From a virus: 64,000 nucleotides of DNA. How positions within the stretch are numbered: position 1 is the stretch's first letter; the number at the start of each line of letters is the position of its first letter. A program made the translations under genes and the position numbers. Under the pieces are notes generated by a model. The model was given only the letters and a program-made list of their open reading frames with translations, did no database searches and was not told where the DNA came from. This document shows positions 21,830 to 62,240 of the stretch, one piece after another. The DNA lies in the IMG/VR virus record IMGVR_UViG_3300042484_001802; one strand, given 5' to 3'.

Positions 21830-22621
21830 ATGGCTTTACAACAGATAAATTGGTTACAAATTGATACAGCAAACGTCCCATCGGGGTCGATTGTTGATTT
21901 GGGGGCTATCTCCGGAGCATTGCATGCGGTTTACGCAGATAATTTATATATTTCAGGGCAAACGTTAGCCGAAGTCATTGCTGGATCAGGAACTGACGAA
22001 TTAAATTTATATACAGCATCATTAAAAAGCGCTATTGAACTTACTGGTTCAAATGTCACAATCAAGGGTGACTTATTGGTTAAAGGTACAACTACAGCGA
22101 TACAGTCAAACACTGTTAGTATAGGTGATAACATCATTGAATTAAATGGTTCAGCAGCTACTTTTGGTGGTTTATTGATAAAAGACCCAACTGCGCCAAA
22201 TACTATCTCAGGTTCATTATTATGGGACACTGTAAATGACCAATGGATTGCAGGCCCTGAAGGGTTTGAGGAAGCGATAATATTACAAGGTGATTATGAC
22301 GCTTTTTCTAGTTCAGTCGCAATAGCAATCAATGAAAGCGGTATTTGGAGACCAACCGGCTCATTTTATGCAACAACAAACGATTTAGAATTAACTGGTT
22401 CGTTAACAATTAAGGGTAATTTAAGAGTTGAGGGTACAACTACGTTAATTCAAACCACTGATCCTAATAGAGAATCTTTAATTGTATCCGGGGCAATGAA
22501 TATCGTTAAAAATCAAATAAATTCACAAGTTATTTCCGCATCATTAGCAATACAAGGACTAGGTAGGTTAGCTGACGCTAATCAGTTTGCAATTTTTGAT
22601 TGTGGTGATGGATTTTTCTAA
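21830..22621 (+). CDS. Tail fibre-related structural protein
   Basis: G/S/T-rich beta repeats (LTGSLTIKGNLRVEGTT); IGDNIIELN...LLWD module shared with neighbouring fibres. Confidence 0.7.
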   Translation: MALQQINWLQIDTANVPSGSIVDLGAISGALHAVYADNLYISGQTLAEVIAGSGTDELNLYTASLKSAIELTGSNVTIKGDLLVKGTTTAIQSNTVSIGDNIIELNGSAATFGGLLIKDPTAPNTISGSLLWDTVNDQWIAGPEGFEEAIILQGDYDAFSSSVAIAINESGIWRPTGSFYATTNDLELTGSLTIKGNLRVEGTTTLIQTTDPNRESLIVSGAMNIVKNQINSQVISASLAIQGLGRLADANQFAIFDCGDGFF

Positions 22622-22662
22622 TTAAAAATAAAGTATTTATATAAAACAACTAAAATTAAAAA

Positions 22663-25401
22663 ATGGCACAAATAATTAAACACAGAAGGGGTAGCGTCAC
22701 ACAACTGAAAGATGTTACAGCTAGAATAGGTGAACTGGTTATGGCCACCGGATCAATCGGTGACTTAAACGGACCTTTCCTATTTGTAGGTGAAACAGAA
22801 GGTGCAGCAGGTGCTTACCGCCCAACTTCAAAAATTTATCAGGGTTCAGCCGCCCCAACATTAACTGTTGGTTCACATGGTTCGGTACTTGATGGAACAC
22901 CATTTTATGCGTCAGGAAATGAATCATTGTACGTATTAAGTAAAGACGGTAACAGTAGATTAGATTTAACAGGTAACATCGAAGGAAATTTAATTTCTGG
23001 TGTAACAATTAACAATTTAACTGGTAGTAACGCGAATTACACAAACCTAACGGGAAACACGTTTACTAGTACAAATGGTAATATAACATCACTTACTGGT
23101 AGTAACGCGAATTACACGAATCTAACAGGAAACACGTTTACTAGTTTTAATTCTAATATTACATCACTTACAGGTAGTAACGCTAATATTTCAAATATTA
23201 CTGGAACTACACTTACAAGTACAAATGGTAATATAACATCACTTACTGGTAGTAACGCATTTGTTACAAATATAACTGGTGGAACTTTAACAGTTACAGG
23301 TACAACTAATTTAAATGGTGATCTTTTAATTAGCGGTAATACCATCCAAACAGGATCAATAGATTTAACGGGTAACATCGTTTTAGGTGGTAACATTACA
23401 ATTGGTGATCAAACAACAGATATTATCCAATTTGGTGGTGAAGTTAGTTCTTCAATTATACCAATTGTGGATAATTCGTTTGATTTAGGTTCAACGAATA
23501 AAAACTGGAGAAATTTACACGTAAGTGGAACTGCATATATCAATACTTTAGAAGCACAACAAGTTAATTTTAATAACTTAGGAATCTTAACTGACTTAGT
23601 TGTAAGTGGTAGCACTTATTTAGGTAATGGTGGTGACGTAACCGTTATTAGTGGTTCATTATATAATGATCAATTGACTGAAAAGAGAATGGTTGTTGTG
23701 GGTGCTGATGGTTTATTAACTGATTATAGTGGTTTAACATTTGATAACGGTAATTTAAATTTATCTGGTGCTCTTGAAGTAACAAACATTCAAGGTACCG
23801 GTTCATTATATCTAAAGGCAGATAAAAATGATTCAAGACATTTTGAGATTTATAATACATCAACAGTTGACACACACATTAAATCTAATGGTGGGTTAAG
23901 TTTCTTTGGTGATGACATAAATTACTTAAAAATAGATGACTCATTACAAACAGCAACAATTGTTGGTGTAAATGGTGTAATTGTTAGTTCTTCATTACAA
24001 GTAACTGGTTCAGTGTTCACTGACAAAATTTTAGGTACTGGTTCACTTTATTTACAACCCGATCAAATCGACGGAAGATATTTTGAAATTTATAACACAG
24101 GCGCAAGTGATGTACACATTAAATCTAGTAATGGTTTAAGTTTCTTTGGTGACGACACCAATTACTTAATGATTAATGATAGTGCACAAACAGCAACAAT
24201 TGTTGGTGTAAACGGTGTGTTTATTAGTTCATCATTAAATGTTACAGGTTCAACAACTTTAAATTCAACATTAGAAGTTAAAGGAGCAGCAGGACTTAAC
24301 TCAACTTTGGATGTTACAGGTTCAGCAATTTTAAAATCAACATTAGAAGTTCAAGGGGCAACAGGACTTAACTCAACTTTGGATGTAACAGGTTCAGCAA
24401 TTTTAAAATCAACATTACAGGTTGATTCAACATCAGAACTTAAAGGTGCTGTAGGTATGAACTCAAGTTTGGATGTAACAGGTTCAGCTCAATTTAAATC
24501 CACAATTAATGTTGATGGTGAAGCAACTTTATCATCTGCAACAGTTGAAGATTTAACACAGGATAGAATTGTTACAGTAGGTGTGGGCGGTTCATTAATT
24601 GACAGTTCAGGATTTACATATAATGGCACTCTTTTCAAAATTGGAAATGGTCAATTTGAGGTAGACACAAATGATGGCGATATTAGAACATCAGGTTCAT
24701 TAACTGTTAATGGTGGGCAAACAATTAATGGTAACACCACAATAAATGGTGTACTAACAGTAACAGGTAACACACAATTACAAGCAAACCTATATGTTTC
24801 AGGTAACTTAGAAGTTTTAGGATCAGCTACAGAAGTACACATTCAATCACAAACAATTGAATTAGATGATAATATAATTAGATTAAACGCATATTCACCT
24901 TTTGAAAGATATGCCGGATTTGAAGTTATCGATTCAGGTTCTTCTGGTGTTTCAGCATCTTTGGTATGGGATTCATTAAATGATTATTGGATGTTTGTTT
25001 CTGCTAGTGGTCAATCAAGTAAATTACTTGGTACAACTGCGGGAACTTATGGTTCTGAAACAAGTTTAACTAGTGGTACAATCCCTAAAGCAACTGGTTC
25101 TAATACAATCGGTGATAGTTCATTAACAGATGATGGTACAACATTAAGTTATAATACAAATAAATTCCAAGTAACATCAACAAACGGAAATACTTTAATT
25201 GCTGGTAACGTTACATTATCTTACTCAGGTGGAACCGATAACGGATCTAAAACATCTGCGATTGTTTTCAAAAACGGTTCGAATGTACTTGGTTACGTTT
25301 CAACAACTGTTGTTACAGAAGTAACTGATGGTTTATTAGGTTACAAAGTATCTAATGGTGCACTAGTATTCTCCGACTTAATTGACGGTGGTTCGTATTA
25401 A
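22663..25401 (+). CDS. Long tail fibre protein with internal repeats
   Basis: N-terminal IKHRRG...GEL fibre-attachment motif; 25-aa, about 80-aa and 12/24-aa internal repeats; C-terminal IDGGSY. Confidence 0.8.
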   Translation: MAQIIKHRRGSVTQLKDVTARIGELVMATGSIGDLNGPFLFVGETEGAAGAYRPTSKIYQGSAAPTLTVGSHGSVLDGTPFYASGNESLYVLSKDGNSRLDLTGNIEGNLISGVTINNLTGSNANYTNLTGNTFTSTNGNITSLTGSNANYTNLTGNTFTSFNSNITSLTGSNANISNITGTTLTSTNGNITSLTGSNAFVTNITGGTLTVTGTTNLNGDLLISGNTIQTGSIDLTGNIVLGGNITIGDQTTDIIQFGGEVSSSIIPIVDNSFDLGSTNKNWRNLHVSGTAYINTLEAQQVNFNNLGILTDLVVSGSTYLGNGGDVTVISGSLYNDQLTEKRMVVVGADGLLTDYSGLTFDNGNLNLSGALEVTNIQGTGSLYLKADKNDSRHFEIYNTSTVDTHIKSNGGLSFFGDDINYLKIDDSLQTATIVGVNGVIVSSSLQVTGSVFTDKILGTGSLYLQPDQIDGRYFEIYNTGASDVHIKSSNGLSFFGDDTNYLMINDSAQTATIVGVNGVFISSSLNVTGSTTLNSTLEVKGAAGLNSTLDVTGSAILKSTLEVQGATGLNSTLDVTGSAILKSTLQVDSTSELKGAVGMNSSLDVTGSAQFKSTINVDGEATLSSATVEDLTQDRIVTVGVGGSLIDSSGFTYNGTLFKIGNGQFEVDTNDGDIRTSGSLTVNGGQTINGNTTINGVLTVTGNTQLQANLYVSGNLEVLGSATEVHIQSQTIELDDNIIRLNAYSPFERYAGFEVIDSGSSGVSASLVWDSLNDYWMFVSASGQSSKLLGTTAGTYGSETSLTSGTIPKATGSNTIGDSSLTDDGTTLSYNTNKFQVTSTNGNTLIAGNVTLSYSGGTDNGSKTSAIVFKNGSNVLGYVSTTVVTEVTDGLLGYKVSNGALVFSDLIDGGSY

Positions 25402-27171: not shown

Positions 27172-30100
27172 ATGGCAAACGAATTTAAAATTAAGAACGG
27201 ACTTGTTGTGTCCGGATCAGCAGAAATTGAAAATAATTTAATCGTACGTGGTACCTTAACAGCGGATTTGGTAAACATCTCTCTTGTTAGTTCATCAGTA
27301 CTATATGAAAGTGGTTCAACCAAATTTGGTAACACTTCAGACGATTTTCATGAATTTACAGGTTCATTATCTATTAGCGGTTCGTTAAATATTAACGGAA
27401 CATCTTATACTTCAGCAACAAGCGGAACATCAGGTACTTCTGGTTCATCAGGAACTAGTGGTTCATCAGGAACTGCCGGCTCTAGTGGTACGTCAGGCAC
27501 ATCTGGTAGTTCAGGAACTGCTGGTACTTCGGGTTCTAGTGGCTCAAGCGGAACATCAGGAAGTTCTGGGTCTTCCGGAACAAGTGGAACCTCAGGTACG
27601 TCTGGGTCTTCTGGTTCGAGTGGTACTTCAGGTACGAGTGGGTCTTCAGGAAGTTCTGGTTCGTCAGGAACGAGTGGTACATCTGGCACTAGTGGAACGT
27701 CAGGTTCTTCTGGTAGTTCGGGGTCAAGCGGAACTTCAGGTTCTTCGGGTTCGTCTGGAACATCTGGAAGTTCAGGTTCTAGTGGAACGGCTGGCACTAG
27801 TGGTACATCAGGTTCTTCAGGTAGTTCTGGAACAAGTGGTAGTTCAGGGTCAAGTGGTACGTCTGGGACGAGTGGCACATCCGGGTCTTCAGGATCTAGT
27901 GGTACATCAGGTAGTTCAGGTTCATCTGGAACAAGTGGCACTTCAGGTACGTCAGGGTCTTCTGGTTCTAGTGGTACATCAGGGTCTTCTGGTAGCTCAG
28001 GAACGTCAGGTTCTAGTGGTACTAGTGGTAGTTCAGGTTCTAGTGGAACATCAGGTTCTTCAGGTAGTTCTGGAACAAGTGGAACTTCTGGTACATCGGG
28101 ATCAAGTGGATCTAGTGGAACATCGGGATCAAGTGGATCTAGTGGAACATCAGGTTCTTCGGGTTCAAGTGGTACCAGTGGTACATCTGGCTCTAGTGGA
28201 TCTAGCGGTACTGTAACAATGACTGGAACACAAGATAACGGTATCTTAACACTTAATGGTTCCTCACCAAATGCTACAGTTGAAAGTAATCTAAGATTTG
28301 ATGGCTCATTACTAACGGTTGTCGGCAATGAAACTATATCAGGTTCATTAATTGTTACAAACGACTTTACAGTATTAGGTTCTTCTTCAATATTATATGT
28401 AACATCATCACAACTTAGAATTGCAGATAATATTATCACAGTTAACACTTCAAATCCAGGCGCCAGATTTGGTGGTTTAGAGGTATTTGATTCTGGTTCA
28501 ATTAATAATGCCACCGGATCAATTCTTTGGGATTCTGTTAATAACAGATGGATATATCAAAATTCAAGTGATGCTGGTTATGGTGGGGGTATGTTTTTAT
28601 CTGGACCACGTAGTTCAGGGTCTTTAGGGTCTGAATTATCGTTAACAAGTGGTAAAATAGCAAAATCGGCAGGTGGTGACCATCTTAACGATTCAAATAT
28701 AACTGATACGGGTACTTTAGTATCAATAAATTCAAATACAGAAATAACAGGTACGTTAAGAGTAACTTCAAATTTATTTATTAACGGAACTTCATATACT
28801 GCTGCTACTTCAGGTACTTCGGGTACATCAGGTTCAAGTGGTACGTCTGGAACATCCGGTTCATCGGGAACTGCGGGTTCATCTGGAACATCAGGTAGTT
28901 CAGGGTCATCTGGTACATCAGGTTCTTCAGGTTCAAGTGGAACATCGGGCACTAGTGGAACATCAGGTAGTTCAGGTTCAAGTGGAACATCTGGGTCTTC
29001 TGGTAGTTCAGGAACGTCTGGAACAAGTGGAACATCCGGTTCTAATGGTTCTAGTGGAACTTCAGGTAGTTCTGGATCATCAGGTACTAGTGGTACTTCA
29101 GGTTCGTCAGGTAGTTCAGGGTCAAGCGGAACGTCTGGGTCTTCTGGTTCTAGTGGTACATCGGGTTCTAGTGGAACGTCGGGTTCTTCAGGTTCAAGTG
29201 GTAGTTCGGGATCAAACGGGTCAAGCGGTACTTCAGGTTCTAGTGGTTCTAGCGGCACATCGGGCAGTTCAGGTTCTTCTGGTTCGTCAGGCACTTCTGG
29301 ATCTAGTGGGTCTTCAGGTAGCTCAGGATCTAGTGGTTCATCAGGTTCATCAGGAAGTTCTGGGTCTTCTGGAACATCTGGTTCTAGCGGGTCTTCTGGG
29401 ACATCTGGTTCTAGTGGTAGTTCTGGCTCATCTGGATCTAGTGGTTCATCAGGAAGTTCTGGTTCGTCAGGTACTTCAGGTTCTAGTGGGTCTTCTGGAA
29501 GTTCTGGATCTAGTGGTTCATCAGGTTCATCAGGTTCATCAGGAAGTTCTGGTTCATCAGGCGCTGCGACAATTAATAGTAACGTAAACGATTATGTTTT
29601 AACAGCAACAGGTACCGCCGGACTAATTCAAGGTGAATCAAATTTAACATTTGATGGTTCAACATTATCAACGAGTAACGTTACCGCTACTGGTACGTAT
29701 AATACAAATGCGTCATCAAGTAGAAACAAATATAACGTTTATTCAACGGGTGCAAGTCCTTACGCTATTGGTATGCAATCAGCAATCACTTATGGTGGTT
29801 TAAATGACTGGGGAATGACCTTCCAATTTAACAACGACAGCGGCAGAGGATTCTGGTGGGGTGACGAAGGACATTCAACAGCACAAGGTGCTATGGCATT
29901 AACTACTGACGGTAGATTAACAGTGGCAAATGATGTTAGAATCGGTTATGGTGAATCTGACGTCACAACACCAACACTACCATTACAAGTATATGGTTCT
30001 GGTGGAACAATTGTTGATATTCAAGGTTCTAGTGGGCAGTTATTCTCGGTAACAGATGATTTAACTGGTGACATATTCTCTATTTCAGATATATCAGGTA

Positions 30101-30375
30101 TACCATTCATAAATGTTAATACAACAAATGGTACTAGTTTTGGATATCATATATTCCCATCAGTTAACAACACCTATAACTTAGGTACATCAGCACTTAG
30201 ATGGGCAAACGTTTTTACGAATGACTTACACTTAAGTAATGAAGGTAAAGAAGGTGGGAATGAAATTGATGGTACAACTGGTAATTGGACTATTCAGGAA
30301 GGGGAAGAAAATCTGTATATTATCAATAATAAGAATGGTAAAAAGTTCAAAATCAATCTAACGGAAATAGAATAA
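27172..30375 (+). CDS. Fibre protein with two (Ser-Gly-Ser/Thr)n collagen-like tracts
   Basis: Gly at every third residue over about 264 and 251 aa; phage-fibre-type C-terminal domain RWANVFTNDLHLSNEG...DGTTGNWTIQEGEENLY. Confidence 0.8.
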   Translation: MANEFKIKNGLVVSGSAEIENNLIVRGTLTADLVNISLVSSSVLYESGSTKFGNTSDDFHEFTGSLSISGSLNINGTSYTSATSGTSGTSGSSGTSGSSGTAGSSGTSGTSGSSGTAGTSGSSGSSGTSGSSGSSGTSGTSGTSGSSGSSGTSGTSGSSGSSGSSGTSGTSGTSGTSGSSGSSGSSGTSGSSGSSGTSGSSGSSGTAGTSGTSGSSGSSGTSGSSGSSGTSGTSGTSGSSGSSGTSGSSGSSGTSGTSGTSGSSGSSGTSGSSGSSGTSGSSGTSGSSGSSGTSGSSGSSGTSGTSGTSGSSGSSGTSGSSGSSGTSGSSGSSGTSGTSGSSGSSGTVTMTGTQDNGILTLNGSSPNATVESNLRFDGSLLTVVGNETISGSLIVTNDFTVLGSSSILYVTSSQLRIADNIITVNTSNPGARFGGLEVFDSGSINNATGSILWDSVNNRWIYQNSSDAGYGGGMFLSGPRSSGSLGSELSLTSGKIAKSAGGDHLNDSNITDTGTLVSINSNTEITGTLRVTSNLFINGTSYTAATSGTSGTSGSSGTSGTSGSSGTAGSSGTSGSSGSSGTSGSSGSSGTSGTSGTSGSSGSSGTSGSSGSSGTSGTSGTSGSNGSSGTSGSSGSSGTSGTSGSSGSSGSSGTSGSSGSSGTSGSSGTSGSSGSSGSSGSNGSSGTSGSSGSSGTSGSSGSSGSSGTSGSSGSSGSSGSSGSSGSSGSSGSSGTSGSSGSSGTSGSSGSSGSSGSSGSSGSSGSSGTSGSSGSSGSSGSSGSSGSSGSSGSSGSSGAATINSNVNDYVLTATGTAGLIQGESNLTFDGSTLSTSNVTATGTYNTNASSSRNKYNVYSTGASPYAIGMQSAITYGGLNDWGMTFQFNNDSGRGFWWGDEGHSTAQGAMALTTDGRLTVANDVRIGYGESDVTTPTLPLQVYGSGGTIVDIQGSSGQLFSVTDDLTGDIFSISDISGIPFINVNTTNGTSFGYHIFPSVNNTYNLGTSALRWANVFTNDLHLSNEGKEGGNEIDGTTGNWTIQEGEENLYIINNKNGKKFKINLTEIE
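27421..28212 (+). repeat. 9-nt-period coding repeat, tract 1 (about 88 SG[ST] triplets)
   Basis: Degenerate tandem repeat with heavy synonymous-codon variation. Confidence 0.95.
28810..29562 (+). repeat. 9-nt-period coding repeat, tract 2 (about 84 SG[ST] triplets)
   Basis: As tract 1; becomes almost pure SGS toward the 3' end. Confidence 0.95.
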
Positions 30376-38612: not shown

Positions 38613-38824
38613 GCAAAGAAGTAACACTTAAAGACGAAAAACTTGAGGCACAACTTTTAGAACAAAGAAAAGTTAAATCCTTAGAAAAAATTGCAGCGTC
38701 ATTAGACGCATTAGCCATTTGGTTTGAAGAAATCGATAAGGAAGATTGGAGCAGTAGAATACAATATTATTTATCTGAATTCCATGATGTTGTAAAACCG
38801 AAAGACCCAACCATAAATGGTTAA
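38609..38824 (+). CDS. Hypothetical protein
   Basis: ORF track; coupled to neighbours. Confidence 0.6.
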   Translation: MSKEVTLKDEKLEAQLLEQRKVKSLEKIAASLDALAIWFEEIDKEDWSSRIQYYLSEFHDVVKPKDPTING

Positions 38825-40214
38825 AAAATTAGGTATCATAGTACCCTATAGAGATAGGGAAAAGCATTTGGAAGAATTTAAAAAAAGGATGTCTAGGTAT
38901 TTTAAAAACTTAGACATTCCTTATGAAATTATAATTGTTCACCAAGATAATGCTAAACTTTTTAATAGAGGCATGCTTTTAAACATTGGGTTTAAGCATG
39001 CTGAAAATTTAAAATGTGACTATGTTGTTTTTCATGATGTTGACATGTTACCATTACATGTTGATTATAGTTACTCTGATGTTCCATTACATTTAGTGAC
39101 CAATTTTAGTGAAATAAAAAAGGTTAAAGCCAAGGAAATCTTTGATGAATATTTTGGTGGTGTAACTTTATTTCCAATGGACTTATTCAATAAAGTTAAC
39201 GGGTTTTCTAACAAATATTGGGGTTGGGGTTACGAAGACACAGATTTATTATTACGTTGCATTAAAAAAAATATACCATTAGATTCTGTTAAATTAACTA
39301 ATTCAAGACCTAAAGGTAAATCTTTAAAATTTAACGGTGTAAATGCGTATATTAAAGGTAAAAATAATATAGATTTAAATAAACCTCAAACAATTTTCGT
39401 CTCTTTTTATCCTGATAAAATAATGTTTGACCATACTAAGGTTGTTGATGATTATAACATTTTTACAATACCTGGATATGATACCGCTTTTAGTTACAAT
39501 TCATTTTTAAGATACAACTTCTGCACTTTTAATCAAAAACATGATGCGTTATATGTTAATTCAAAGATAAAAACGAATTATAAAACCAACATGTGTGTCA
39601 CTATTGATACAAATAAAATTTGTGTTTACCAAGATGGTATTTTAATAGATAAAATTGGGAATTCAGAAAAATTGTTAAAATACAAAAATGAAAAGTTTTT
39701 TTATTTGGGTTCAAGTAAACCAGATAGCGATGAACCAAAATTTTTCAAAGGATATATCGATGCGTTTGCAATAATTCCAGAAGTATTATCTGATGAAGAT
39801 GTTTTTAATTTATCACAAAATTCAGCATACTTTTTAAACAAGGTTTGTGATTCCTTATCAATATATTATGACGCTAATTTTATTGAAAACTATAAATTAA
39901 CTGATTTATCGGGAAATGATAATGATGGTGAAATTGTAAATTGTAATATTGTTGATTTGGACATTGAAGAATATAAAATAGTTAAAATACCACATAGAAG
40001 AGATTGTACTTTTTATTTACTGGATCACGAAGAAAATGGTTTTTTAAATAATAGATGGAAAACAGATGCAACAAGGTGGAATCAATTAAGATTTCATAAT
40101 GAAGTTTCAAAGAATGATAAACTATTGGAAAATGATGGTTTATCTGATTTAAAATATACAAAACACGGCATAAAAGTCGTAGATAATATAACACACATTA
40201 ACGTTGGAATATGA
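38817..40214 (+). CDS. GT7 (beta-1,4-galactosyltransferase-like) with an inserted LamG-like domain
   Basis: IIVPYRDR, FNRGMLLNIG, FHDVD, YFGGV, NGFSNKYWGWGYED; insert SLKFNG...VYQDG...FKGYID; then the GT7 C-terminus DGLSDLKY. Confidence 0.85.
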   Translation: MVKKLGIIVPYRDREKHLEEFKKRMSRYFKNLDIPYEIIIVHQDNAKLFNRGMLLNIGFKHAENLKCDYVVFHDVDMLPLHVDYSYSDVPLHLVTNFSEIKKVKAKEIFDEYFGGVTLFPMDLFNKVNGFSNKYWGWGYEDTDLLLRCIKKNIPLDSVKLTNSRPKGKSLKFNGVNAYIKGKNNIDLNKPQTIFVSFYPDKIMFDHTKVVDDYNIFTIPGYDTAFSYNSFLRYNFCTFNQKHDALYVNSKIKTNYKTNMCVTIDTNKICVYQDGILIDKIGNSEKLLKYKNEKFFYLGSSKPDSDEPKFFKGYIDAFAIIPEVLSDEDVFNLSQNSAYFLNKVCDSLSIYYDANFIENYKLTDLSGNDNDGEIVNCNIVDLDIEEYKIVKIPHRRDCTFYLLDHEENGFLNNRWKTDATRWNQLRFHNEVSKNDKLLENDGLSDLKYTKHGIKVVDNITHINVGI

Positions 40215-41641
40215 ACCATAAATTAGGTATTTGTGTACCCTATAGAAATAGAAAAGAACACCTTGATAGATTAATCCCACATTTATCTAAACATTTAGAT
40301 TCCCAAGGAATTGATTATAAATTTTATGTTGCACATCAAGTAGATGACAAACTTTTTAACAGAGGTGCAATGAAAAATATTGCAGCTAAACACGCATTAG
40401 AAGATGGTTGTGATTATATTGCTTGGCACGACGTGGATATGTTGACGTTTGAAGATAGTGATTATTCATATCCAGAAGAAACTCCGATTCATATTGCAAC
40501 TATGTTGTCAAAATACAATTATGGTATAAACTATGATCAATACTTTGGCGGAGTAGTGTTGTTTAATAAAGAACATTTAGAAAAAACAAATGGGTACTCA
40601 AACGACTATTGGGATTGGGGTATGGAAGACGATGATTTGTTTTGGAGATGTTATTATGAAAATTATACAACAGGAAAAATAAAACGTTCATATACCAATA
40701 AACAATACGCGGAATTTAATGGCGTTACATCTAAAATAGAAATACCAAGTACTAGGGAATTAGTTAATTTATTACATAATGACCACACAATTTCTATTTT
40801 ATTTAATGCGGAACAACAACAAGAAAAGGTTCCAATTTGGATGATTGGTGATGAACAAAAACGCTTCATTGAATACCCCATATTTAGAAAAACCGGAGGG
40901 TATAATTACGGTTTATCTTTTAATAATTCTAGGGCAGTTACAATGTGTTTGTTTAACGAAAGAAGACAAACAATCTACAATTGGCTGAAAAGATTTGAAA
41001 ACATGTGGACGTGGGTTACACTAACATATAATAAAGAAGAGGAACGAATATTCTTTTATCTAAATGATGAATTTGGTCGGAATATGAATGGAATCAAAGA
41101 AGACGCTTATTTCCCAGCGTTTGGTAAACTTCTTAGGTACAATACAACAACTCCATTTTATTTAGGACACGATTCAGACATGAACACATTCTTTAAGGGT
41201 AAAATAGCCGAAATTAAGATATATGACAAGTTTTTTCCACACGTTGATATCGGTCAAGTGTTTGATACTGAGAAAGATGGGTTAATTTTACATCACGATT
41301 TCTCAAATAGAGAAAATAATGTTATATTTGATAATGTGGATGCTCACGAATGTATTGGAACCGATATTGTTTATGGTTCAGAGGATGTTGATGTGATTGA
41401 AAACGTAGTACCATTTAGACGAGAGGGTAAATTTTATTGTTTACCACACGTAGATGAAGGGTTTGTTGGTGGAAGATGGGCTAAGGGTGAAACCACAGCT
41501 AAAAACGAAAAAAGATTTGTTACAGAAATGCAACAGAAAAAAATAAATTACAAAGACGATGGGTTGTCAACATTAAAATATGAATTGGTTAGCGTTGAAA
41601 ACTATAGTAACAAATGTGTAATGATAAACACAAAATTATAA
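40211..41641 (+). CDS. Second GT7 with an inserted LamG-like domain
   Basis: VPYRNR, FNRGAMKN, WHDVD, YFGGV, NGYSNDYWDWGMEDDD; insert EFNG...WVTLTY...FKGKIAEIKIYD; C-terminal DGLSTLKY. Confidence 0.85.
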   Translation: MNHKLGICVPYRNRKEHLDRLIPHLSKHLDSQGIDYKFYVAHQVDDKLFNRGAMKNIAAKHALEDGCDYIAWHDVDMLTFEDSDYSYPEETPIHIATMLSKYNYGINYDQYFGGVVLFNKEHLEKTNGYSNDYWDWGMEDDDLFWRCYYENYTTGKIKRSYTNKQYAEFNGVTSKIEIPSTRELVNLLHNDHTISILFNAEQQQEKVPIWMIGDEQKRFIEYPIFRKTGGYNYGLSFNNSRAVTMCLFNERRQTIYNWLKRFENMWTWVTLTYNKEEERIFFYLNDEFGRNMNGIKEDAYFPAFGKLLRYNTTTPFYLGHDSDMNTFFKGKIAEIKIYDKFFPHVDIGQVFDTEKDGLILHHDFSNRENNVIFDNVDAHECIGTDIVYGSEDVDVIENVVPFRREGKFYCLPHVDEGFVGGRWAKGETTAKNEKRFVTEMQQKKINYKDDGLSTLKYELVSVENYSNKCVMINTKL

Positions 41642-55472: not shown

Positions 55473-55504
55473 GTTTTTTGATTTTTTTTAGTTATATTAG
55501 TAAT

Positions 55505-55939
55505 ATGATATACTGGTTAACAGGCCAACCTGGCGCAGGAAAAACAACCTTAGCAAAATACTTAGTGGAATACTTTCCGAAAGATGAGGTTACTCACATC
55601 GATGGAGATGACTTAAGGGACATCTTTAAAAACAAGGACTATTCCATAACAGGTAGAAGATTAAACATCCAAAGAGCACAATACATTGCACAATTCATGC
55701 ATAGTAAGGGACATAATGTTATTGTGTCCTTAGTTTCACCATATCGAGACCAAAGAGAAGAATTTAAATTTAGCACATCGGTTGTTGAGATTTATGTACA
55801 CACCACAGAAGATAGAGGTAGGAACCAATTTCATGTTGAGGAATATGAACCACCATTAGAAAATTTTATAGACATAGATACAACAATAAAAAACGAAACA
55901 GATTCGTATTTTGAACTATTAAAAAAATTATCATTATGA
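55505..55939 (+). CDS. cysC: Adenylyl-sulfate (APS) kinase
   Basis: WLTGQPGAGKTT, IDGDDLR, VSLVSPY, YEPP; likely start is ATG 55505. Confidence 0.85.
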   Translation: MIYWLTGQPGAGKTTLAKYLVEYFPKDEVTHIDGDDLRDIFKNKDYSITGRRLNIQRAQYIAQFMHSKGHNVIVSLVSPYRDQREEFKFSTSVVEIYVHTTEDRGRNQFHVEEYEPPLENFIDIDTTIKNETDSYFELLKKLSL

Positions 55940-56451
55940 TGACAAATGGTATTATCATTGACAATTTTTTAGACAATGTTGATGAAATAAGAGAGGAAGC
56001 GTTGTTATTAGATTATACTAAATCATTACCCGAAAGTGAAGGTTGGAAAGGGTTTAGGTGTTTAAATGGAAACATGTTGACACTTGATTTACATGAAAAA
56101 ATTAAAGAAAAGTTAGTTGAAACTAATATAAAATTTGATAATTGTGATATGAGGTGTTTTTTTCATTATACATTGGAAGAACATAATGTAGGTAAAAAAA
56201 ACACACATCGTGATTATGGTTTTGATTATGCTGGGGTTTTATACCTAGCACCAAACCCACAAAAAAATTCAGGTACGTCTTTTTATAATGATTTAGGTGA
56301 AGAAACCGGTTACTTGGAAAACGTTTATAATAGATTAGTAATTTATCCAGCGAATGAGTTACACTCTTTAAAAGAATCTTTTGGTAACGATATTAATAAT
56401 GGTAGATTAACTTTCACGTTTTTTTGTAAATTAAAAAATAACAATATATGA
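55936..56451 (+). CDS. 2OG-Fe(II) oxygenase-like (DUF6445-like)
   Basis: IIDNFL, HRD, AGVLYL, GTSFY, NRLVIY...LH, RLT..FF. Confidence 0.75.
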   Translation: MMTNGIIIDNFLDNVDEIREEALLLDYTKSLPESEGWKGFRCLNGNMLTLDLHEKIKEKLVETNIKFDNCDMRCFFHYTLEEHNVGKKNTHRDYGFDYAGVLYLAPNPQKNSGTSFYNDLGEETGYLENVYNRLVIYPANELHSLKESFGNDINNGRLTFTFFCKLKNNNI

Positions 56452-56828
56452 GTAAGAAATATGCAATGTACATCGGTAGGTGGCAAAATTGGCATAAAGG
56501 TCACGAATGGTTGATCCGTCAACAAATGGACCAAGGTAAGAACATATGGGTAGCTATTAGGGATGTTGAAGTTGACGAGAACAACCCTAAAACAGCTCAA
56601 GAGGTTTTTCAAATGTTAATCCAGGAGCCCTTTTTTAACGAGAATTTTGATAAGATTTTACTATCAATTATCCCAGATATTGAATCGGTTAATTATGGTA
56701 GAGGTGTTGGTTACGATGTTATTTATCACGAGCCACCGGCGGATGTTGCGGTAATAAGCGGAACTGCTATTAGAACTGGACATATGACCGCTGATGGCTC
56801 AATAAAATATGACCAAACAAAAGGATAA
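56448..56828 (+). CDS. Minimal HxGH nucleotidyltransferase (cytidylyltransferase/ATP-sulfurylase-like)
   Basis: IGRWQNWHKGH, YGRGVGY, ISGTAIR. Confidence 0.75.
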   Translation: MSKKYAMYIGRWQNWHKGHEWLIRQQMDQGKNIWVAIRDVEVDENNPKTAQEVFQMLIQEPFFNENFDKILLSIIPDIESVNYGRGVGYDVIYHEPPADVAVISGTAIRTGHMTADGSIKYDQTKG

Positions 56829-57043
56829 TGATTGTAGAACGTAAACGACATATAGCCAAAACAATATCCTATCGTATTATAAGCACTATAATAGGTTTCC
56901 TTATAATGTGGTGGGTTAGTGGATCTATTAAGATTGGTGCAACCTTTGGTGTGGCTGAATTAGTATACAAACCTATTCAATATTACCTACATGAAAGGAT
57001 TTGGTATAGATGGATAAAGTTCGGGGTAAAAGATAAAAAATAA
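56828..57043 (+). CDS. DUF2061-like small membrane protein
   Basis: RHIAKTISYRII...YYLHERIW. Confidence 0.8.
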   Translation: MIVERKRHIAKTISYRIISTIIGFLIMWWVSGSIKIGATFGVAELVYKPIQYYLHERIWYRWIKFGVKDKK

Positions 57044-57067
57044 GTATTTATATATAAATTAGAAAAT

Positions 57068-58555
57068 ATGAGAACAGTATTGATAGGATCAGATTTTATG
57101 TACGATAAGGATGGTAATTTAAGACCCATTGAAATAAACACTGCGGTTGGTTGGGATGGTCCCGAAAAAGTCGAGGAAGATGTTGATTGTTTGGATTTAA
57201 CAAATTTATATCAATTTGTTGAGGATAATAATTTCCAAACGATACATTATGTTGGTGATATTGGTCCATTACACGTGACATTAATGACACATTATAGCGG
57301 AAGTTCTGTTACATATGAATTTCACGGGGTTGGTGCAACTTCCATTACAGTTCCATACATAGAAGATACTGAAACGACTTTAATTATTAGGAGTGCATAT
57401 GACACAACAGCACTAGTGGATGACACATATTGTAAGGATAAAATAGAGTTCATGAATCTAATTAAAGATTCTTCTTTTGGCTCCCAATTTGCGTACATTG
57501 ACGAAAATAACACATTGGTGTCAAATATCACATCTATAAATGATAACGGCGAACACCCTAATTTTATTTTAAAATCTAGATTTCCAGGTTATGACAAGTT
57601 AATTTATCCAAAATTTTTTAAAGTTACAACTCAATCTGAATTAGACACTATAATAGCAAATAATGTTACAAGTGAGTATTTTTTAATGGAGTACCTATGT
57701 AACGTCAATAAACTATGGGAAGGGCATTTAACGGTGATAAGAAGTTTAAACATTTTAGTCCCACCAAATTTAGAATCAATTCAAATTGGCCAATATACAA
57801 AATTGAATCAAAATATGTTACTAGATAATGTGACATATGATTCAATCACATTTGAAGTATATTCAGATTTCAAAGAGAGTTATAGTACAAACCCACCTAC
57901 CGGTTTTCAACCTAAATTATTGAATACTGATATGGTAGAAATGGCAGATGGGACATTAAAAACTGCATTGGATTTACAAATTGGGGACGTTATTAAAACA
58001 ATTGAAATACCAAATGAAAAGGGAACTAGTATAGATAGTTACGTATCCTCCGAATTTGGGCTTACGTACGATACGTTGGTAAGTGATGCAATATATACAA
58101 CTAATGTCGTAACCAAAAAACAAAAAGTAAACACCTTAACTTTTATAAATGAATTAACATTTGAAGATGCTAGTACCTGGGAAGATACTATGGGCTCAAA
58201 GTATTTGATAGACAGAGAAGGTGTGGTTATGTTTAAATCATTATGGGGGATATTTCCAGGAGATGTGGTTATATTATTAGATACTACTGATGATAATATA
58301 AATTTTGTAAGAAAAACAGTTACATCAAATATTCAAGTTAAGAGAGTGTTCTCTGGTTGGTTTATTTCAGTTGATACCGCTATGTTATTTTTAACTAAAA
58401 CAGCCGGGTCAACCAATAACGAATCATATGTTTCAATTGAACATAACCTTATATCTTGTCCCAATTGGACATGTACAAACGCTTGCTGGTCCATCTGTCC
58501 ATCATGTCCGAAGTATATGTCTTGTCAATCTAATTACTGTTTTCCAGTATGTTAA
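57068..58555 (+). CDS. Circularly permuted ATP-grasp-like domain + Hint domain + C-terminal Cys-rich peptide
   Basis: N-terminal GSDFMYDKDGNLRPIEINT (D...ExN), DK, ILKSR, LMEY; Hint block A-like VEMADGTLKTALDLQIGDVI (about aa 283); terminal IEHN (aa 460); then 35 aa with 8 Cys. Confidence 0.7.
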   Translation: MRTVLIGSDFMYDKDGNLRPIEINTAVGWDGPEKVEEDVDCLDLTNLYQFVEDNNFQTIHYVGDIGPLHVTLMTHYSGSSVTYEFHGVGATSITVPYIEDTETTLIIRSAYDTTALVDDTYCKDKIEFMNLIKDSSFGSQFAYIDENNTLVSNITSINDNGEHPNFILKSRFPGYDKLIYPKFFKVTTQSELDTIIANNVTSEYFLMEYLCNVNKLWEGHLTVIRSLNILVPPNLESIQIGQYTKLNQNMLLDNVTYDSITFEVYSDFKESYSTNPPTGFQPKLLNTDMVEMADGTLKTALDLQIGDVIKTIEIPNEKGTSIDSYVSSEFGLTYDTLVSDAIYTTNVVTKKQKVNTLTFINELTFEDASTWEDTMGSKYLIDREGVVMFKSLWGIFPGDVVILLDTTDDNINFVRKTVTSNIQVKRVFSGWFISVDTAMLFLTKTAGSTNNESYVSIEHNLISCPNWTCTNACWSICPSCPKYMSCQSNYCFPVC

Positions 58556-58584: not shown

Positions 58585-58674
58585 ATGGCAACAATTATAT
58601 CAAATACAGACATCAATACTTTAAACACCACAATTACAACAATAGGTAGTTTAATTGTAACAGCAAACAGTTAG
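58585..58674 (+). CDS. 29-aa Thr/Ile/Asn-rich peptide
   Basis: MATIISNTDINTLNTTITTIGSLIVTANS; A-rich leader like other genes here; fills the gap between two genes. Confidence 0.55.
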   Translation: MATIISNTDINTLNTTITTIGSLIVTANS

Positions 58675-58697: not shown

Positions 58698-59231
58698 ATG
58701 ATACATTTCATACCAAATATTCTTACTAAGGATGAGTGTGAATACTTAACGAATCAATTTGATTTCGAAAGAAAATATCAAATCTCGGCGGATAATGAAT
58801 ATACTGGCACCAATATATCATATGGGTTTGCCCCTTCATTTGCGTTTAATACCTATTTAAATAAATTAAAATCAAAAGTGTTAGAATATAACAATAATTT
58901 TGATGATTTATTCAATGTAAACACATTTGTTAGGGAATATATGAACACCTCAATGTTAAAAAAACATTTAGATAGAAAAGACATTAGTGTTACTATGTCT
59001 ATATGTTTAGAATCCACAATAAATAAAGAATGGCCGTTATGTGCGGAAATCGGAAATAAGGAATATTGTTTCAACACAAATATTGGTGACGGTATTTTAT
59101 TATTTGATGCGGATAAAATCACACATTGGAGGGAACCCTTAATATGTCTGGAGAAAGAAAGAGTTGTCCAATTTTTTTTACATTGGAAACCTTCTGATTA
59201 CGTCGCAAAAAAAACAAAATCATTATTATAA
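58698..59231 (+). CDS. 2OG-Fe(II) oxygenase
   Basis: LKKHLDR, GDGILL, HWRE, QFFLHW. Confidence 0.8.
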   Translation: MIHFIPNILTKDECEYLTNQFDFERKYQISADNEYTGTNISYGFAPSFAFNTYLNKLKSKVLEYNNNFDDLFNVNTFVREYMNTSMLKKHLDRKDISVTMSICLESTINKEWPLCAEIGNKEYCFNTNIGDGILLFDADKITHWREPLICLEKERVVQFFLHWKPSDYVAKKTKSLL

Positions 59232-59242
59232 AAAAATAAATT

Positions 59243-59827
59243 ATGCCATTTACATATACAATAGAGTCAACCTTTTTAACAAAAGAAGAATGTGATTTAA
59301 TATTAGATTTTTCATTAAAAGAATTAAAATTAGTACCATCGGAAATTCTTACCAATTACACCGATGGTGGCGACGTTAATACCGATATTAGAAAATCAAA
59401 TCAAGTATTTTACCCCTATTATAAAAAATTTCCATTTTTATTAGAAAAAATGAGTAAATTATTAAATCAACATATTTTTGTTAAAGGGTTCGATTTAGAT
59501 TTTAAAGAAAGTCAATTTCAGTTTACTGAGTATCATCCAGGCGGACATTTTGGCTGGCATAGAGATGCTCATGGAAAAAAAATAACGGATTATGACAGGT
59601 ATTGTTCATTAGTGATACAACTAAATGATGAGTATGGAGAGGGTGATTTACAAATAAAAGATGATCAGAATGGGACCCTAACAGTTGAAAAGGGTACAGG
59701 AAATTTGATATTATTTTTATCAAATATTGAACATAGAGTAGTGCCAGTAAAAAGTGGGATTAGATATACACTAGTTAATTGGGTGAAATTAAAACAAAAA
59801 AAAGATTATAAAAAAACACTTTTATAG
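59243..59827 (+). CDS. 2OG-Fe(II) oxygenase (PKHD/P4H-like)
   Basis: QFTEY..GGHFGWHRD, GEGDL, HRVVPV.SGIRYTLVNW. Confidence 0.9.
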   Translation: MPFTYTIESTFLTKEECDLILDFSLKELKLVPSEILTNYTDGGDVNTDIRKSNQVFYPYYKKFPFLLEKMSKLLNQHIFVKGFDLDFKESQFQFTEYHPGGHFGWHRDAHGKKITDYDRYCSLVIQLNDEYGEGDLQIKDDQNGTLTVEKGTGNLILFLSNIEHRVVPVKSGIRYTLVNWVKLKQKKDYKKTLL

Positions 59828-59828
59828 C

Positions 59829-60146
59829 ATGAAAATAAATTTTAAAGAAATATTAAATGCTTGGTATAATGTTATAAATCACACACCAGAACAAAAGGAA
59901 TTAGCAGATAAAAGATTCGCTATATGTTTAGAATGCCCCTCTAAAATAGAAATTTTAAAAGACAAGAAATGGCTTTTTAAATGTAAAGAATGTGGTTGTC
60001 CTTTAGGCGCAAAAGTTTACACTGAAACAACATACCTTACTAAAGACAAATCTTGTCCACTTGATAAATGGAAAGAAGTTGAAATGGAATTTATGAGTAA
60101 ACATAGTGACACGATTAAATATAAAACTAAAAAAACATTTCTTTAG
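59829..60146 (+). CDS. Small Cys-rich (Zn/Fe-binding) protein
   Basis: RFAICLECP...CKECGCPL..K...CPLDKW. Confidence 0.7.
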   Translation: MKINFKEILNAWYNVINHTPEQKELADKRFAICLECPSKIEILKDKKWLFKCKECGCPLGAKVYTETTYLTKDKSCPLDKWKEVEMEFMSKHSDTIKYKTKKTFL

Positions 60147-60148
60147 TT

Positions 60149-60838
60149 ATGGGTTATTTAATAAACGATGACCTTTTATGGGTGATCACCCCTAAATGTG
60201 CTAGCGACTCAATAGAAACTGCATTATTAAACTCAAGTTTAAATTTAAAAAAATATAGCGAGCACTTCGAACAACATACCCATATGCATATACCACTAAA
60301 CGAGTGCTTAACTAAGTTTGGTAAAAAAGAAACAATATGTATCACTAGAGATTGGTTTGAAAAATGGTTAAGTTCATTAAATTTTATTTGGGATTATATA
60401 GAATTATATAGTGAATATGAACCAGTATGTAAATGGGAGGACATCAATAATAATGTTATTTATGAGATATTTGATAGCGAATTTGTAAATAAACTTTACT
60501 CATTAAATCATACCTCTAATGAAGAATGTTTTTTGAAATTATTAAAAAGGAACACCGAAGATATTATAAACGTACCCAAAGAAATTTATGGAATAATAAT
60601 AACTCTAATATCTGAACGCTATTGGAAAAGTAATGTAAAATGCACATATGAATTTGATATTAAAAAATTAGACGATTTTGTTAATTTCATTGAAAATAGG
60701 TTTGGTGAAAAATTAATAATAGAAAAGAAAAACGTATCTACAAAAAGACCAAATAAATTAATAGTAAATAATGAATTAAAATCTTTTGTTTGGGAAAAAT
60801 TTGAAAAAATATTTGAAAAAAGAAATCAATTAATTTAA
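60149..60838 (+). CDS. Sulfotransferase-family-like protein
   Basis: PKCAS (5'-PSB-like) and RDWFEKWLS (3'-PB-like). Confidence 0.6.
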   Translation: MGYLINDDLLWVITPKCASDSIETALLNSSLNLKKYSEHFEQHTHMHIPLNECLTKFGKKETICITRDWFEKWLSSLNFIWDYIELYSEYEPVCKWEDINNNVIYEIFDSEFVNKLYSLNHTSNEECFLKLLKRNTEDIINVPKEIYGIIITLISERYWKSNVKCTYEFDIKKLDDFVNFIENRFGEKLIIEKKNVSTKRPNKLIVNNELKSFVWEKFEKIFEKRNQLI

Positions 60839-60839
60839 T

Positions 60840-61508
60840 ATGGCAACTATTTGGACATTTGGGGATTCATTTACTTCTGGAGACGGGTGTGTAGAAAACC
60901 TAAGAATTAGAGACGGCGATTTTAGATATTATAACGAATATAAAAAACTAGGTAGTGATATATGGCCTAATTTATTAGGTAAAACTTTAGGATATGACGT
61001 AAAAAATCTAGGAAAAAGTGGTGCAAGTAATGACTATATTTTAGATTCTATTATTGATAATTTTAACATGATAGAACCAAATGATGTGGTGATAATTGAA
61101 AAAACATTTTACCAAAGATTTGATATACCTAAATCAACGGGTGATGGGTTTCAAACAATTTACGCTGAAGGACTTTATCAACTTTCTATTGATTTAAAAA
61201 TGGAAAGATATTCTTGTGAAGATAAATTAGAAATTGAAACGGTATTAAATTATGGTGTTTTATTTTCCGACAATAAATTATTTAAAGAAAGACAAGATAA
61301 ACGATTTGAATTTATACAAGCACAATTAAATAATAAAACAGATAAAATATTAATATGGGATGTTTTAGATTTTTTAGACGGTAAAATTGAAACGATAGGT
61401 CAACACACTGAGGGTAATATAAAAGATTATCATTTTAGTTTTAATGGTCATAAAAGATTTAGCGAATTTCTATACAAAAAATTATATATTAAACCCTCAT
61501 TAGTTTAA
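60840..61508 (+). CDS. SGNH/GDSL-like hydrolase or acyltransferase
   Basis: FGDSFT, NLGKSGASN, DYHFSFNGH. Confidence 0.7.
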   Translation: MATIWTFGDSFTSGDGCVENLRIRDGDFRYYNEYKKLGSDIWPNLLGKTLGYDVKNLGKSGASNDYILDSIIDNFNMIEPNDVVIIEKTFYQRFDIPKSTGDGFQTIYAEGLYQLSIDLKMERYSCEDKLEIETVLNYGVLFSDNKLFKERQDKRFEFIQAQLNNKTDKILIWDVLDFLDGKIETIGQHTEGNIKDYHFSFNGHKRFSEFLYKKLYIKPSLV

Positions 61509-62240
61509 ATGTTAGTCGATAAAAAATTTATTTTTATAAGTTTACCAAGATGTGCATCAACATCATTTATGATTACGTGTGTTAAAAACAAAATACCAAT
61601 AGAGCATTTCAACTCAAACCATGATAATCAGTTGATTAAAATCAATGAATGGGAAAAAATGGGTAATGAAGAATTGGCAGATAGATTAGTACATGCACAC
61701 GAACCATTACATATGTTACAAGAAAAATTTGGGACGAGCAACCAAATTATTTCAATAAGACGAAATAAGTACGATAGATTTTTATCTTTATGGAAACACA
61801 TCATAGACGAATTACACAGAATTAACAAACTTGATATTGCTGACATCTTTTCAAAATTAACAACTAATGATCTGTTTGATAATATTAAACCAAATGACAT
61901 TTATAATTCGGAAAATAGAGTTAAAGTTATTGATAATTTTTTATCTAGGTTAGAAATTTCAAAAGAAGAATCTTACACTAAAAATATGTTAGATATATTG
62001 TTTATGCCAGTAGTTGAACTTACAAATAACGACCCAAATATTATCTGGTTTGATATTAACAGTTTGAGAGATTTAGAAAATTGGGTGTCAAAAAAACTAA
62101 ATAGAGATTTTAAAATGGAAAAAATAAATTCAAGTAAACATTTTAATTCAGTAATGGAGAACGATGATAATTTTAAACAGAAATATGATAATCTTTATAA
62201 AGAATTTGACCAAAGAAAAACAACTAAAACATTATTGTAA
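61509..62240 (+). CDS. Sulfotransferase-family-like protein
   Basis: FIFISLPRCASTS, RNKYDRFLSLW, INSS. Confidence 0.65.
   Translation: MLVDKKFIFISLPRCASTSFMITCVKNKIPIEHFNSNHDNQLIKINEWEKMGNEELADRLVHAHEPLHMLQEKFGTSNQIISIRRNKYDRFLSLWKHIIDELHRINKLDIADIFSKLTTNDLFDNIKPNDIYNSENRVKVIDNFLSRLEISKEESYTKNMLDILFMPVVELTNNDPNIIWFDINSLRDLENWVSKKLNRDFKMEKINSSKHFNSVMENDDNFKQKYDNLYKEFDQRKTTKTLL

Follow-up and report, generated by a model that had tools for sequence, protein, structure and literature searches.

In the borosins, which are RiPPs (peptides synthesized ribosomally and modified post-translationally) of the omphalotin type, one polypeptide comprises a methyltransferase and, at its C-terminus, the core peptide to be modified, and release depends on a separate protease. 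In bacterial polymorphic toxins, the pretoxin-HINT domain is placed just upstream of the toxin module to be released, where it is a releasing peptidase and not a splicing element (PMC3482391). In the BUBL loci of Tetrahymena, a BIL domain activates the C-terminus of a small upstream module, which it then attaches to a lysine with no use of ATP (PMC8616854). In this study, we analyzed a gene found in 64,000 nucleotides of viral DNA (IMG/VR record IMGVR_UViG_3300042484_001802; this whole stretch is referred to as the window). The gene, an intact open reading frame (ORF) of 495 codons at positions 57068–58555 of the + strand, encodes an ATP-grasp ligase-like domain, a Hint domain and a cysteine-rich tail. 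Similar to the borosins, a putative modifying enzyme and a C-terminal peptide are found in one chain; different from them, the chain would bring about its own release by means of the Hint domain. The closest working likeness would be a releasing module of the pretoxin-HINT or BIL type that is joined to an enzyme. The domain architecture is real, abundant and so far undescribed, while its mechanism can be deduced only in part. Comparison among homologs makes self-release of a disulfide-rich peptide a well-supported prediction.

The G+C content of the window is 32%, and the gene is within a long run of closely packed genes on the same strand. The genes of this run encode virion structural proteins, an SbcC-like nuclease, a collagen-repeat protein of 1067 amino acid residues, glycosyltransferases and sugar epimerases, which identify the window as phage DNA. 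Related contigs reach 236–335 kb and one of them has a distant homolog adjoining a tail-sheath gene, which points to jumbo myovirus-like phages. We regard the source as an uncultured marine jumbo phage. The 495-residue protein had no usable match in the Pfam, PHROGs and NCBIfam models, and the single sequence matched no ATP-grasp, Hint or Cys-knot model of Pfam at E-values up to 10. Searches of the 50,697 phage records of INPHARED yielded zero matches to the protein (tblastn) or to its upstream neighbors (blastn). A word-indexed search identified 767 metagenomic homolog clusters at 90% identity, mostly of ~495 residues, and an exhaustive HMMER search identified 253 homologs among 50%-identity representatives. 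The locus search with the single protein found 36 close loci in IMG/VR and none in the GTDB representative genomes. Atlas clusters of the family were 96–100% viral, and the family appears to be restricted to phages. In fold searches of the Atlas and BFVD, the only matches were unnamed viral clusters of the family itself and Hint matches of a generic kind. In the literature, including a survey of jumbo phages (PMC7824862), no description was found of an ATP-grasp-Hint fusion, a phage permuted ATP-grasp or this family. The main alignment contained 144 homologs, whose identities to the window protein went down to 22%, and column entropies were calculated from a close set of 120 homologs. The AlphaFold2 model of the full-length protein had a predicted local distance difference test score (pLDDT) of 88 and a predicted template modeling score of 0.85.

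Modeled alone, residues 1–282 reached a pLDDT of 94.5. An exhaustive structural scan (VIA-align) of this model against 48,161 PDB representatives returned permuted-type ATP-grasp ligases as the top 9 hits and in 11 of the first 12 places, with only TTLL11 at rank 10 being of another type. The alignments with the permuted-type ligases ran from about residue 1 to about residue 250–280, with Z-scores of 5.9–8.0. They included a glutathione-synthetase-like effector (5oeu; Z 8.0, root-mean-square deviation 5.3 Å over 214 aligned residues), glutathionylspermidine synthetase (GspS) of Escherichia coli (2io7; Z 7.8, 4.5 Å over 202 residues, model residues 1–277 on chain residues 310–608) and YgiC (7uka; Z 7.7, 4.2 Å over 194 residues). 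Further structures of the GspS/glutathione synthetase (GS) type (3n6x, 3k1t, 2wyo and 3kaj) had Z-scores of 7.3–7.5, and the E-64 ligase Cp1B (9cjn) had a Z-score of 6.8. The classical, non-permuted ATP-grasps, such as TTLL, ArgX/LysX, RimK, Ddl and GAR synthetase, scored Z 4–6 and were aligned over residues 55–282 only, as is predicted if the hairpin with the Mg ligands has moved. Foldseek matches of the same model ranged from 3e-6 to 7e-5 and included yeast glutathione synthetase (3e-6) and YgiC (4e-5).

Every full-length member of the family begins with M-[RK]-x-V-L-I-G-x-D...E-I-N-T at residue 1. E22, N24, R108, D118 and R225 were invariant in all 144 rows, D9 was found in 142 and K169 in 143 of them, and the positions conserved in at least 90% of the homologs were D9, T25, D100, Y111, N165, K169 and P181. 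K169 is part of an FILKS motif and E208 of an LMEY motif in the window protein. In a profile alignment (hhalign), D9, E22 and N24 were paired with D102, E115 and N117 of YgiC at identical spacing, and the family profile gave weak matches to this motif in biotin carboxylases. The metal-binding role of D9, E22 and N24 and the phosphate-binding role of K169 are assigned from their positions in these motifs. Conservation of the putative metal, phosphate and Arg residues argues for an active carboxylate-activating ligase, an activity that we infer from the residues kept.

Several observations weigh against this assignment. The kinship with ATP-grasps is at the level of the fold only, as no Pfam ATP-grasp model matched. 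The alignment of the family with YgiC and the Gss synthetase domain covered the hairpin only (45 columns, E 0.16). Moreover, Z-scores of at most 8 are "middling" by the scale of VIA-align and may reflect a common arrangement. Finally, Gly7 is found where YgiC has an Arg (R100) two residues before the first acidic ligand. Membership by sequence in GSP_synth, CP_ATPgrasp_1/2 or GSH_synth_ATP was rejected for want of a Pfam match and given that E-value of 0.16. The ATP-grasp assignment was nevertheless accepted because the list of top hits was almost entirely of one family type, the match extended over the whole domain and the invariant residues fell on motif positions. Similar to GspS, YgiC, YjfC, eukaryotic glutathione synthetase and 3n6x, a putative glutathionylspermidine synthase, the D...E-x-N hairpin comes first, with the 13-residue spacing of YgiC. 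Different from GspS and YgiC, in which 100–300 extra residues precede the hairpin, the domain of this family starts at the hairpin and is only ~280 residues long. It is also distinguished from these two by the Gly in place of Arg and by its fusion to a Hint domain. It is the smallest permuted ATP-grasp seen in this analysis. A stand-alone ATP-grasp domain of 283 residues (P0162, at 1175–2026 of locus L009) has neither Hint nor tail, and its E22 is replaced by Gly; it is probably a decaying remnant.

The full-length model matched inteins, Tetrahymena BIL2 and hedgehog over residues 283–460 in Foldseek, with E-values of 4e-7 to 1e-5 and target template-modeling scores of 0.65–0.75. When the PDB was searched with the family profile, the MJ0781 KlbA intein was matched best (7e-9), followed by several further inteins, BIL2 and hedgehog with E-values of ~1e-3 to 1e-2. 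Position 1 of the Hint domain is Lys283 (Lys in 65, Ser in 12, Gly in 12, Asp in 10 and Thr in 9 of the 144 rows; Glu also occurs). Block B reads T374-M-G-S377, and its His column was Ser in 92 of the 144 rows. Residues 283–460 of the window protein contain zero Cys and hence no block-F Cys nucleophile. The +1 residue is Leu; among 143 rows, Cys was found once and Ser or Thr 15 times at this position, and Ala, Leu, Pro, Phe and Tyr were the commonest residues. His459 and Asn460, however, were found in 136 and 142 of the 144 rows, respectively. An earlier reading of this DNA (the sequence-only reading) had proposed a permuted ATP-grasp at residues 1–280 and a Hint domain at residues 283–460, with splicing and N-terminal cleavage disabled and His-Asn intact. 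The structural searches and invariant motif residues bear out the first proposal and the best Foldseek and profile matches the second, and the column statistics agree with the Lys, TMGS and Leu on which the third was founded.

A splicing intein of class 1, 2 or 3 was rejected, as there is no nucleophile at position 1, in block F or at +1, and no block-B His. Since all three splicing routes are excluded, cyclization of Asn460, which would cut the chain after this residue, is the only reaction left. The best profile match, the KlbA intein, itself lacks an N-terminal nucleophile, and in most sequences the first tail Cys is 2–5 residues past Asn460; both would suit a class-2-like (KlbA-type) or class-3 intein that joins the ATP-grasp domain to the tail. 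However, the rarity of Cys, Ser and Thr at +1, the varying spacing of the first tail Cys, the Hint domain devoid of Cys and the lack of an intein-free allele among the 144 aligned homologs make such splicing very improbable. A mobile intein was likewise rejected, given that same lack of a Hint-less allele and of Cys in the Hint domain, with the stand-alone ATP-grasp domain being a truncated remnant.

Similar to pretoxin-HINT and BIL domains, the Hint domain of this family stands directly before a polymorphic C-terminal module and has a conserved His-Asn. Pfam PT-HINT was matched weakly by one homolog (P0197). Different from the pretoxin-HINT proteins, the family is devoid of secretion and trafficking domains and of RHS or filamentous repeats, and a variable immunity gene is also absent. 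In addition, its N-terminal partner is an enzyme domain, its cargo is a Cys scaffold of 30–60 residues instead of a toxin enzyme, it is found in phages only, and its first Hint domain (Hint-1) is too divergent for every Pfam Hint model.

In homologs whose chain continues for 20 or more residues beyond the Hint domain, Asn460 was found in 138 of 138 and His459 in 133 of 138, whereas His-Asn was lost in 2 of the 5 tail-less homologs (Fisher's exact test, p = 0.02, with small n). Two observations weigh against cleavage. His-Asn is retained in the other 3 tail-less homologs, and block-F residue 439 is Asp or His in only 96 of the 144 rows and Met in the window protein, so the machinery for Asn cyclization is not the textbook one.

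Within the close set, V455-S-I-E-H-N460 was near-invariant (0.0–0.3 bits for the His and Asn columns), and the columns at +1, +2 and +3 were the most variable ones of the protein (3.3, 3.6 and 2.7 bits). The mean entropy of the non-Cys tail columns was 2.47 bits, compared with 0.82 bits for the ATP-grasp and 1.04 bits for the Hint domain. Different from these columns, C480, K482, C486 and C491 were invariant in the tail, P481 was found in 114 of the 120 homologs, and most tail Cys columns were near-invariant, with two conserved at ~85%. The tails of the close family usually end in a Cys and contain few or no acidic residues. The nonsynonymous rate (dN) of the tail was ~4–5 times that of the domains, and its ratio of nonsynonymous to synonymous rates (omega) was ~0.5–0.7 compared with 0.23. 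Omega of the tail was raised yet not robustly above 1, which counts against the reading given here, and positive selection is not claimed because the synonymous sites were saturated.

The number of Cys residues was even in all 106 short tails (4, 6, 8, 10 or 12), of which 37 had 6 or 10, which are not multiples of four. An even number with so many 6- and 10-Cys forms favors disulfides over tetrahedral metal sites, and disulfide pairing in turn implies a function of the peptide beyond the reducing cytoplasm. A tail that binds Zn or Fe-S was rejected on the same counts, as sets of four ligands are at odds with 6 or 10 Cys and strictly even numbers agree with disulfides. The tail has the paired Cys on a fixed framework and the hypervariable loops (2.5 bits) of disulfide-rich mini-proteins of the knottin, hevein or conotoxin kind. 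Its pLDDT was only 55–65 in the full-length model, and no named Cys-knot family of Pfam matched it. The 35-residue, 8-Cys tail that the sequence-only reading described at residues 461–495 is present, so that all three parts described there are confirmed, with features that go far beyond what chance would give, and the homologs show the constant His-Asn and hypervariable tail that it had anticipated; the metal-rich tail that it had allowed for is disfavored.

The protein might also work as a single uncleaved chain, in which the Hint domain is a spacer or a peptide-binding module and the tail is a permanently attached knob that binds glycans or a receptor, or a cytoplasmic metal domain. The composition of the tail, rich in C, G, S, P, Y and W, recalls that of small carbohydrate-binding Cys knots, BACON domains (putative glycan binders) are among the cargo of distant homologs, and the gene sits among fibre-like and glycan-modifying genes; the 3 tail-less proteins with His-Asn would also agree with it. 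However, no structural role is known for His-Asn, which is nevertheless retained in proteins that do not retain position 1 and the block-B His. Moreover, the abrupt boundary and the second autoproteolytic domains described below fit excision, and the 6- and 10-Cys tails do not fit a metal domain. We thus consider an uncleaved protein unlikely, although with a better claim than splicing.

What follows His-Asn is polymorphic, ranging from mini-proteins with 4–16 Cys to domains of 100–240 residues and BACON-bearing extensions of 700–1200 residues. Apart from the 106 short tails and the very long BACON-bearing forms, 18 longer non-standard extensions were found. In 14 aligned homologs, another self-cleaving domain comes after the Cys-rich segment, which is therefore flanked by self-cleaving sites on both sides. 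In 7 of the 14, this domain is a canonical second Hint (Hint-2), which starts with C-F-x-x-G-T and ends with H-N and a short Lys-rich stretch. The three Hint-2 sequences scanned all exceeded the cut-off of Pfam Intein_splicing, and Hint-2 also matched PT-HINT. In the other 7, a Peptidase_S74 domain follows a ...K/SD junction (best Pfam score 25.3 bits against a cut-off of 22). The number of Cys was even in all 14 segments bounded by two predicted cuts, and these segments match the free-ending short tails of sister proteins.

These variants link the family to two known systems. Similar to the Peptidase_S74 chaperones of phage tail fibres and endosialidases, which have an SD-x-x-x-K motif and self-cleave before Ser, some homologs end in this domain; different from the fibre proteins, it follows a Cys-rich segment and not a triple beta-helix fibre, and it is absent from the window protein. 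Similar to BUBL, the two-Hint variants (P0178, P0195, P0214 and others) set a small module between Hint domains, and BIL2 was among the top structural matches of Hint-1. Different from BUBL, the module is a Cys scaffold of the disulfide type and not a ubiquitin fold, Hint-1 is without Cys1, an ATP-grasp domain is always present, and most members, including the window protein, have no second Hint.

Taken together, excision of the tail is supported by the retention of His-Asn, the sharp boundary behind it, the polymorphic cargo, the second cleaving domains and the even Cys counts. The explanation that we favor, and hold to be probable, is that of a phage-specific self-processing protein of three parts, whose Hint domain frees the C-terminal cargo and whose ligase has one of several candidate substrates. 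Asn460 would cyclize to a succinimide and break the Asn460-Leu461 bond, most likely the one reaction of this Hint domain, and thereby release the 35-residue peptide with its 8 Cys. The sequence-only reading had likewise proposed a cut after Asn460, and it is upheld in part, namely for the domains and the predicted self-release. The peptide may then fold with four disulfides after leaving the reducing cytoplasm, e.g., at lysis, and its loops would evolve fast on the fixed Cys scaffold. Candidate substrates of the ligase are the released peptide, with its new amine, invariant Lys482 and C-terminal carboxylate, and a peptide of 29 residues encoded by a micro-ORF downstream.

Use of the released peptide by its own ATP-grasp domain, the last step of the sequence-only reading, would lead to a head-to-tail ring, a lariat through Lys482 or ligation to another molecule or a virion protein, and one gene would then contain precursor, protease and ligase. 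Borosins are a precedent for an enzyme that is covalently tethered to its substrate. The nearest structural relatives (GS, GspS, YgiC, TTLL, RimK, LysX/ArgX and Cp1B) form amides on the carboxylates of peptides or proteins, often at the C-terminus (for Cp1B, see PMC12568646). The invariant Lys, usual C-terminal Cys and scarcity of acidic residues in the tails of the close family also speak for this use. The stand-alone ATP-grasp domain that lost Hint and tail also lost E22 (n = 1). However, the five homologs without a Cys tail retain all five invariant ATP-grasp residues, and the invariants are kept in every aligned homolog regardless of cargo, including the Hint-2 and Peptidase_S74 variants. 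Conservation of the ligase residues whatever the cargo argues against a role limited to the fused peptide, and we consider such self-ligation unlikely, well below the explanation favored above. A complex prediction for the ATP-grasp domain with ATP and two Mg and the 35-residue tail gave a score of 0.00, which counts neither for nor against binding.

The micro-ORF, in contrast, tracks the ATP-grasp-Hint core and not the cargo, making it a serious candidate for a substrate or partner. It adjoined the gene in all 33 loci inspected (directly downstream in 32 and upstream in 1), including those of tail-less relatives and of relatives with 25–30% identity. Its homologs had 24–41 residues and ended in ...IGxLIxxANS in close and ...LIK[VI]KH[LT] in distant relatives. 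Its ratio of nonsynonymous to synonymous polymorphism (pN/pS) was 0.26, a sign of purifying selection, so it is a real coding gene, and it is far more conserved than the tail. The ATP-grasp domain may act on this peptide, in the manner of graspetides on Thr/Ser and the single Asp/Glu, on the carboxyl end of ...ANS, or by joining it to the amine exposed by the Hint domain, and the Cys cargo would then be a separate or second partner. However, adjacency is the only link between the two, the peptide has one acidic residue, and a structural or regulatory role for this small protein is just as conceivable. We rate it as much the same as, or a little below, ligation of the released peptide. Under the favored explanation of a self-processing protein, both peptides are kept as candidates. 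The features of the gene and its surroundings are listed in Table 1.

Table 1. Features of the ATP-grasp-Hint gene and its neighbors in the window.
Feature	Coordinates	Strand	Basis
Whole ORF, 495 amino acids (P0001)	57068..58555	+	ATP-grasp, Hint, Cys-rich tail
Minimal circularly permuted ATP-grasp ligase-like domain, residues 1-280	57068..57907	+	structure model, fold searches
Mg-binding-type hairpin D9...E22-x-N24, residues 9-24, extreme N-terminus	57092..57139	+	conservation, YgiC alignment
Hint domain lacking both the N-terminal nucleophile and the block-B His, putative cleavage-only type, residues 283-460	57914..58447	+	Foldseek, profile, columns
His459-Asn460, predicted scissile site, cut after Asn460	58442..58447	+	conservation, entropy jump
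Hypervariable 8-Cys tail, residues 461-495, C-x4-C-x3-C-x3-C-x2-C-x5-C-x4-C-x3-C	58448..58552	+	conservation, Cys parity
Micro-ORF, 29 amino acids, Thr/Asn-rich, ends ...IGSLIVTANS	58585..58674	+	strict linkage, pN/pS
Two oxygenase-type genes: 177 amino acids, no Pfam match; 194-amino-acid 2-oxoglutarate (2OG)-Fe(II) oxygenase	58698..59827	+	Pfam 2OG-FeII_Oxy_3 for 59243-59827
105-amino-acid protein, six conserved Cys (C-x2-C ... C-x2-C-x-C ... C)	59829..60146	+	co-occurrence with Cys-tail loci
Sulfotransferase-like genes, 229 and 243 amino acids, SGNH-like gene between	60149..62240	+	Atlas feature search lead
Adenosine 5'-phosphosulfate (APS) kinase, 171-amino-acid DUF6445-like ORF (55936-56451), 126-amino-acid nucleotidyltransferase-like protein, DUF2061 membrane protein	55478..57043	+	Pfam APS_kinase, DUF2061

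The neighborhood of the gene was conserved in homologs with identities down to 25–30%, including genes for APS kinase, nucleotidyltransferase, DUF2061, 2OG oxygenases, sulfotransferase-like proteins and radical S-adenosylmethionine proteins. The upstream block was syntenic in related loci L001, L002, L004 and L011–L013. The pair of oxygenase-type genes was also syntenic in related loci, and L001 has between them an additional Asp_Arg_Hydrox (PF05118) gene, for which the window has no counterpart. In nearly all loci with Cys tails, including the distant L006 and L007, a homolog of the protein with six conserved Cys (Cys6, ~100 residues) lay no more than ~2 kb away; it was not detected in the tail-less loci L011–L014 or the two-Hint loci L004 and L005. 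The sole family lead for Cys6 was a weak DUF6171 match. Judged by this distribution, Cys6 may serve the cargo, perhaps in a redox or chaperone role.

The 243-residue sulfotransferase-like protein adjoined a Sulfotransfer_2 cluster in the Atlas feature search (score 0.96, a lead only). In distant loci, homologs of the sulfotransferase-like genes come directly after the micro-ORF, and relatives contain a P-R-x-G-S-T-S motif that resembles the loop binding 3'-phosphoadenosine 5'-phosphosulfate (PAPS). With APS kinase upstream and sulfotransferase-like genes downstream in most related phages, sulfation appears to be a conserved theme, and either a peptide or a glycan could be modified by the neighboring enzymes. 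Genes for flavin-dependent Trp halogenases are found at 10813–12357 of L004 and 6415–7644 of L006, beside distant homologs with Trp in their Cys-rich segments, and no Trp halogenase was found in the flanks of the window gene.

A more far-reaching interpretation is that of a peptide factory and conjugation device in one gene. The Hint domain would excise a hypervariable disulfide-knot peptide, and the ATP-grasp domain would activate a carboxylate to form a ring or lariat or to couple the peptide to the micro-ORF product, to a protein of the virion or to a molecule of the host. Sister variants might proceed without ATP through a Hint-2 thioester, in a way resembling split-intein circular ligation of peptides and proteins (SICLOPPS) or BUBL, and the neighboring oxygenases, halogenases and sulfotransferases might decorate the peptide as in conotoxins. 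We regard this whole chain of steps as speculative and on balance improbable.

Other features of the window were also observed. The proteins encoded on the + strand between 58698 and 61508 end alike in Lys-rich hydrophobic residues (...KSLL, ...KTLL, ...KTFL, ...NQLI and ...PSLV), which may be compositional at 32% G+C. Exact copies of AGTATTTATA are at 22632–22641 and 57043–57052 (+), 25–31 nucleotides upstream of the ORF starts at 22663 and 57068, and copies with one mismatch precede the ORFs at 21830, 25619 and 27172. However, AGTATTTATA is not enriched in the window (17 matches compared with 19.6 expected), and a promoter role is unproven. No terminator-like sites were found around the gene. 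The collagen-repeat protein (27172–30375, +) matched Pfam Collagen, which models triple-helix repeats, at 2.6e-70, and long spurious ORFs in other frames lie over its repeats. Near its gene are two tandem paralogs, at 38817–41641, that encode fusions of a GT7 galactosyltransferase with Laminin_G_3.

If cleavage is confirmed, phages would have in this family a widespread means of making small disulfide-rich peptides with neither a leader peptide nor a separate protease. It would also provide a naturally cleavage-only Hint domain that tolerates non-nucleophilic +1 residues, and both this Hint domain and the minimal permuted ATP-grasp could be of use in practice, for self-cleaving tags and for the display of peptides. 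The micro-ORF, Cys6, PAPS-supply and sulfotransferase-like genes suggest a larger, undescribed cassette for tailoring peptides or glycans in jumbo phages. Finally, the fast diversification of loops on a fixed Cys frame would, if cleavage is true, point to a direct role of the peptide in the contact of marine phages with their hosts or competitors.

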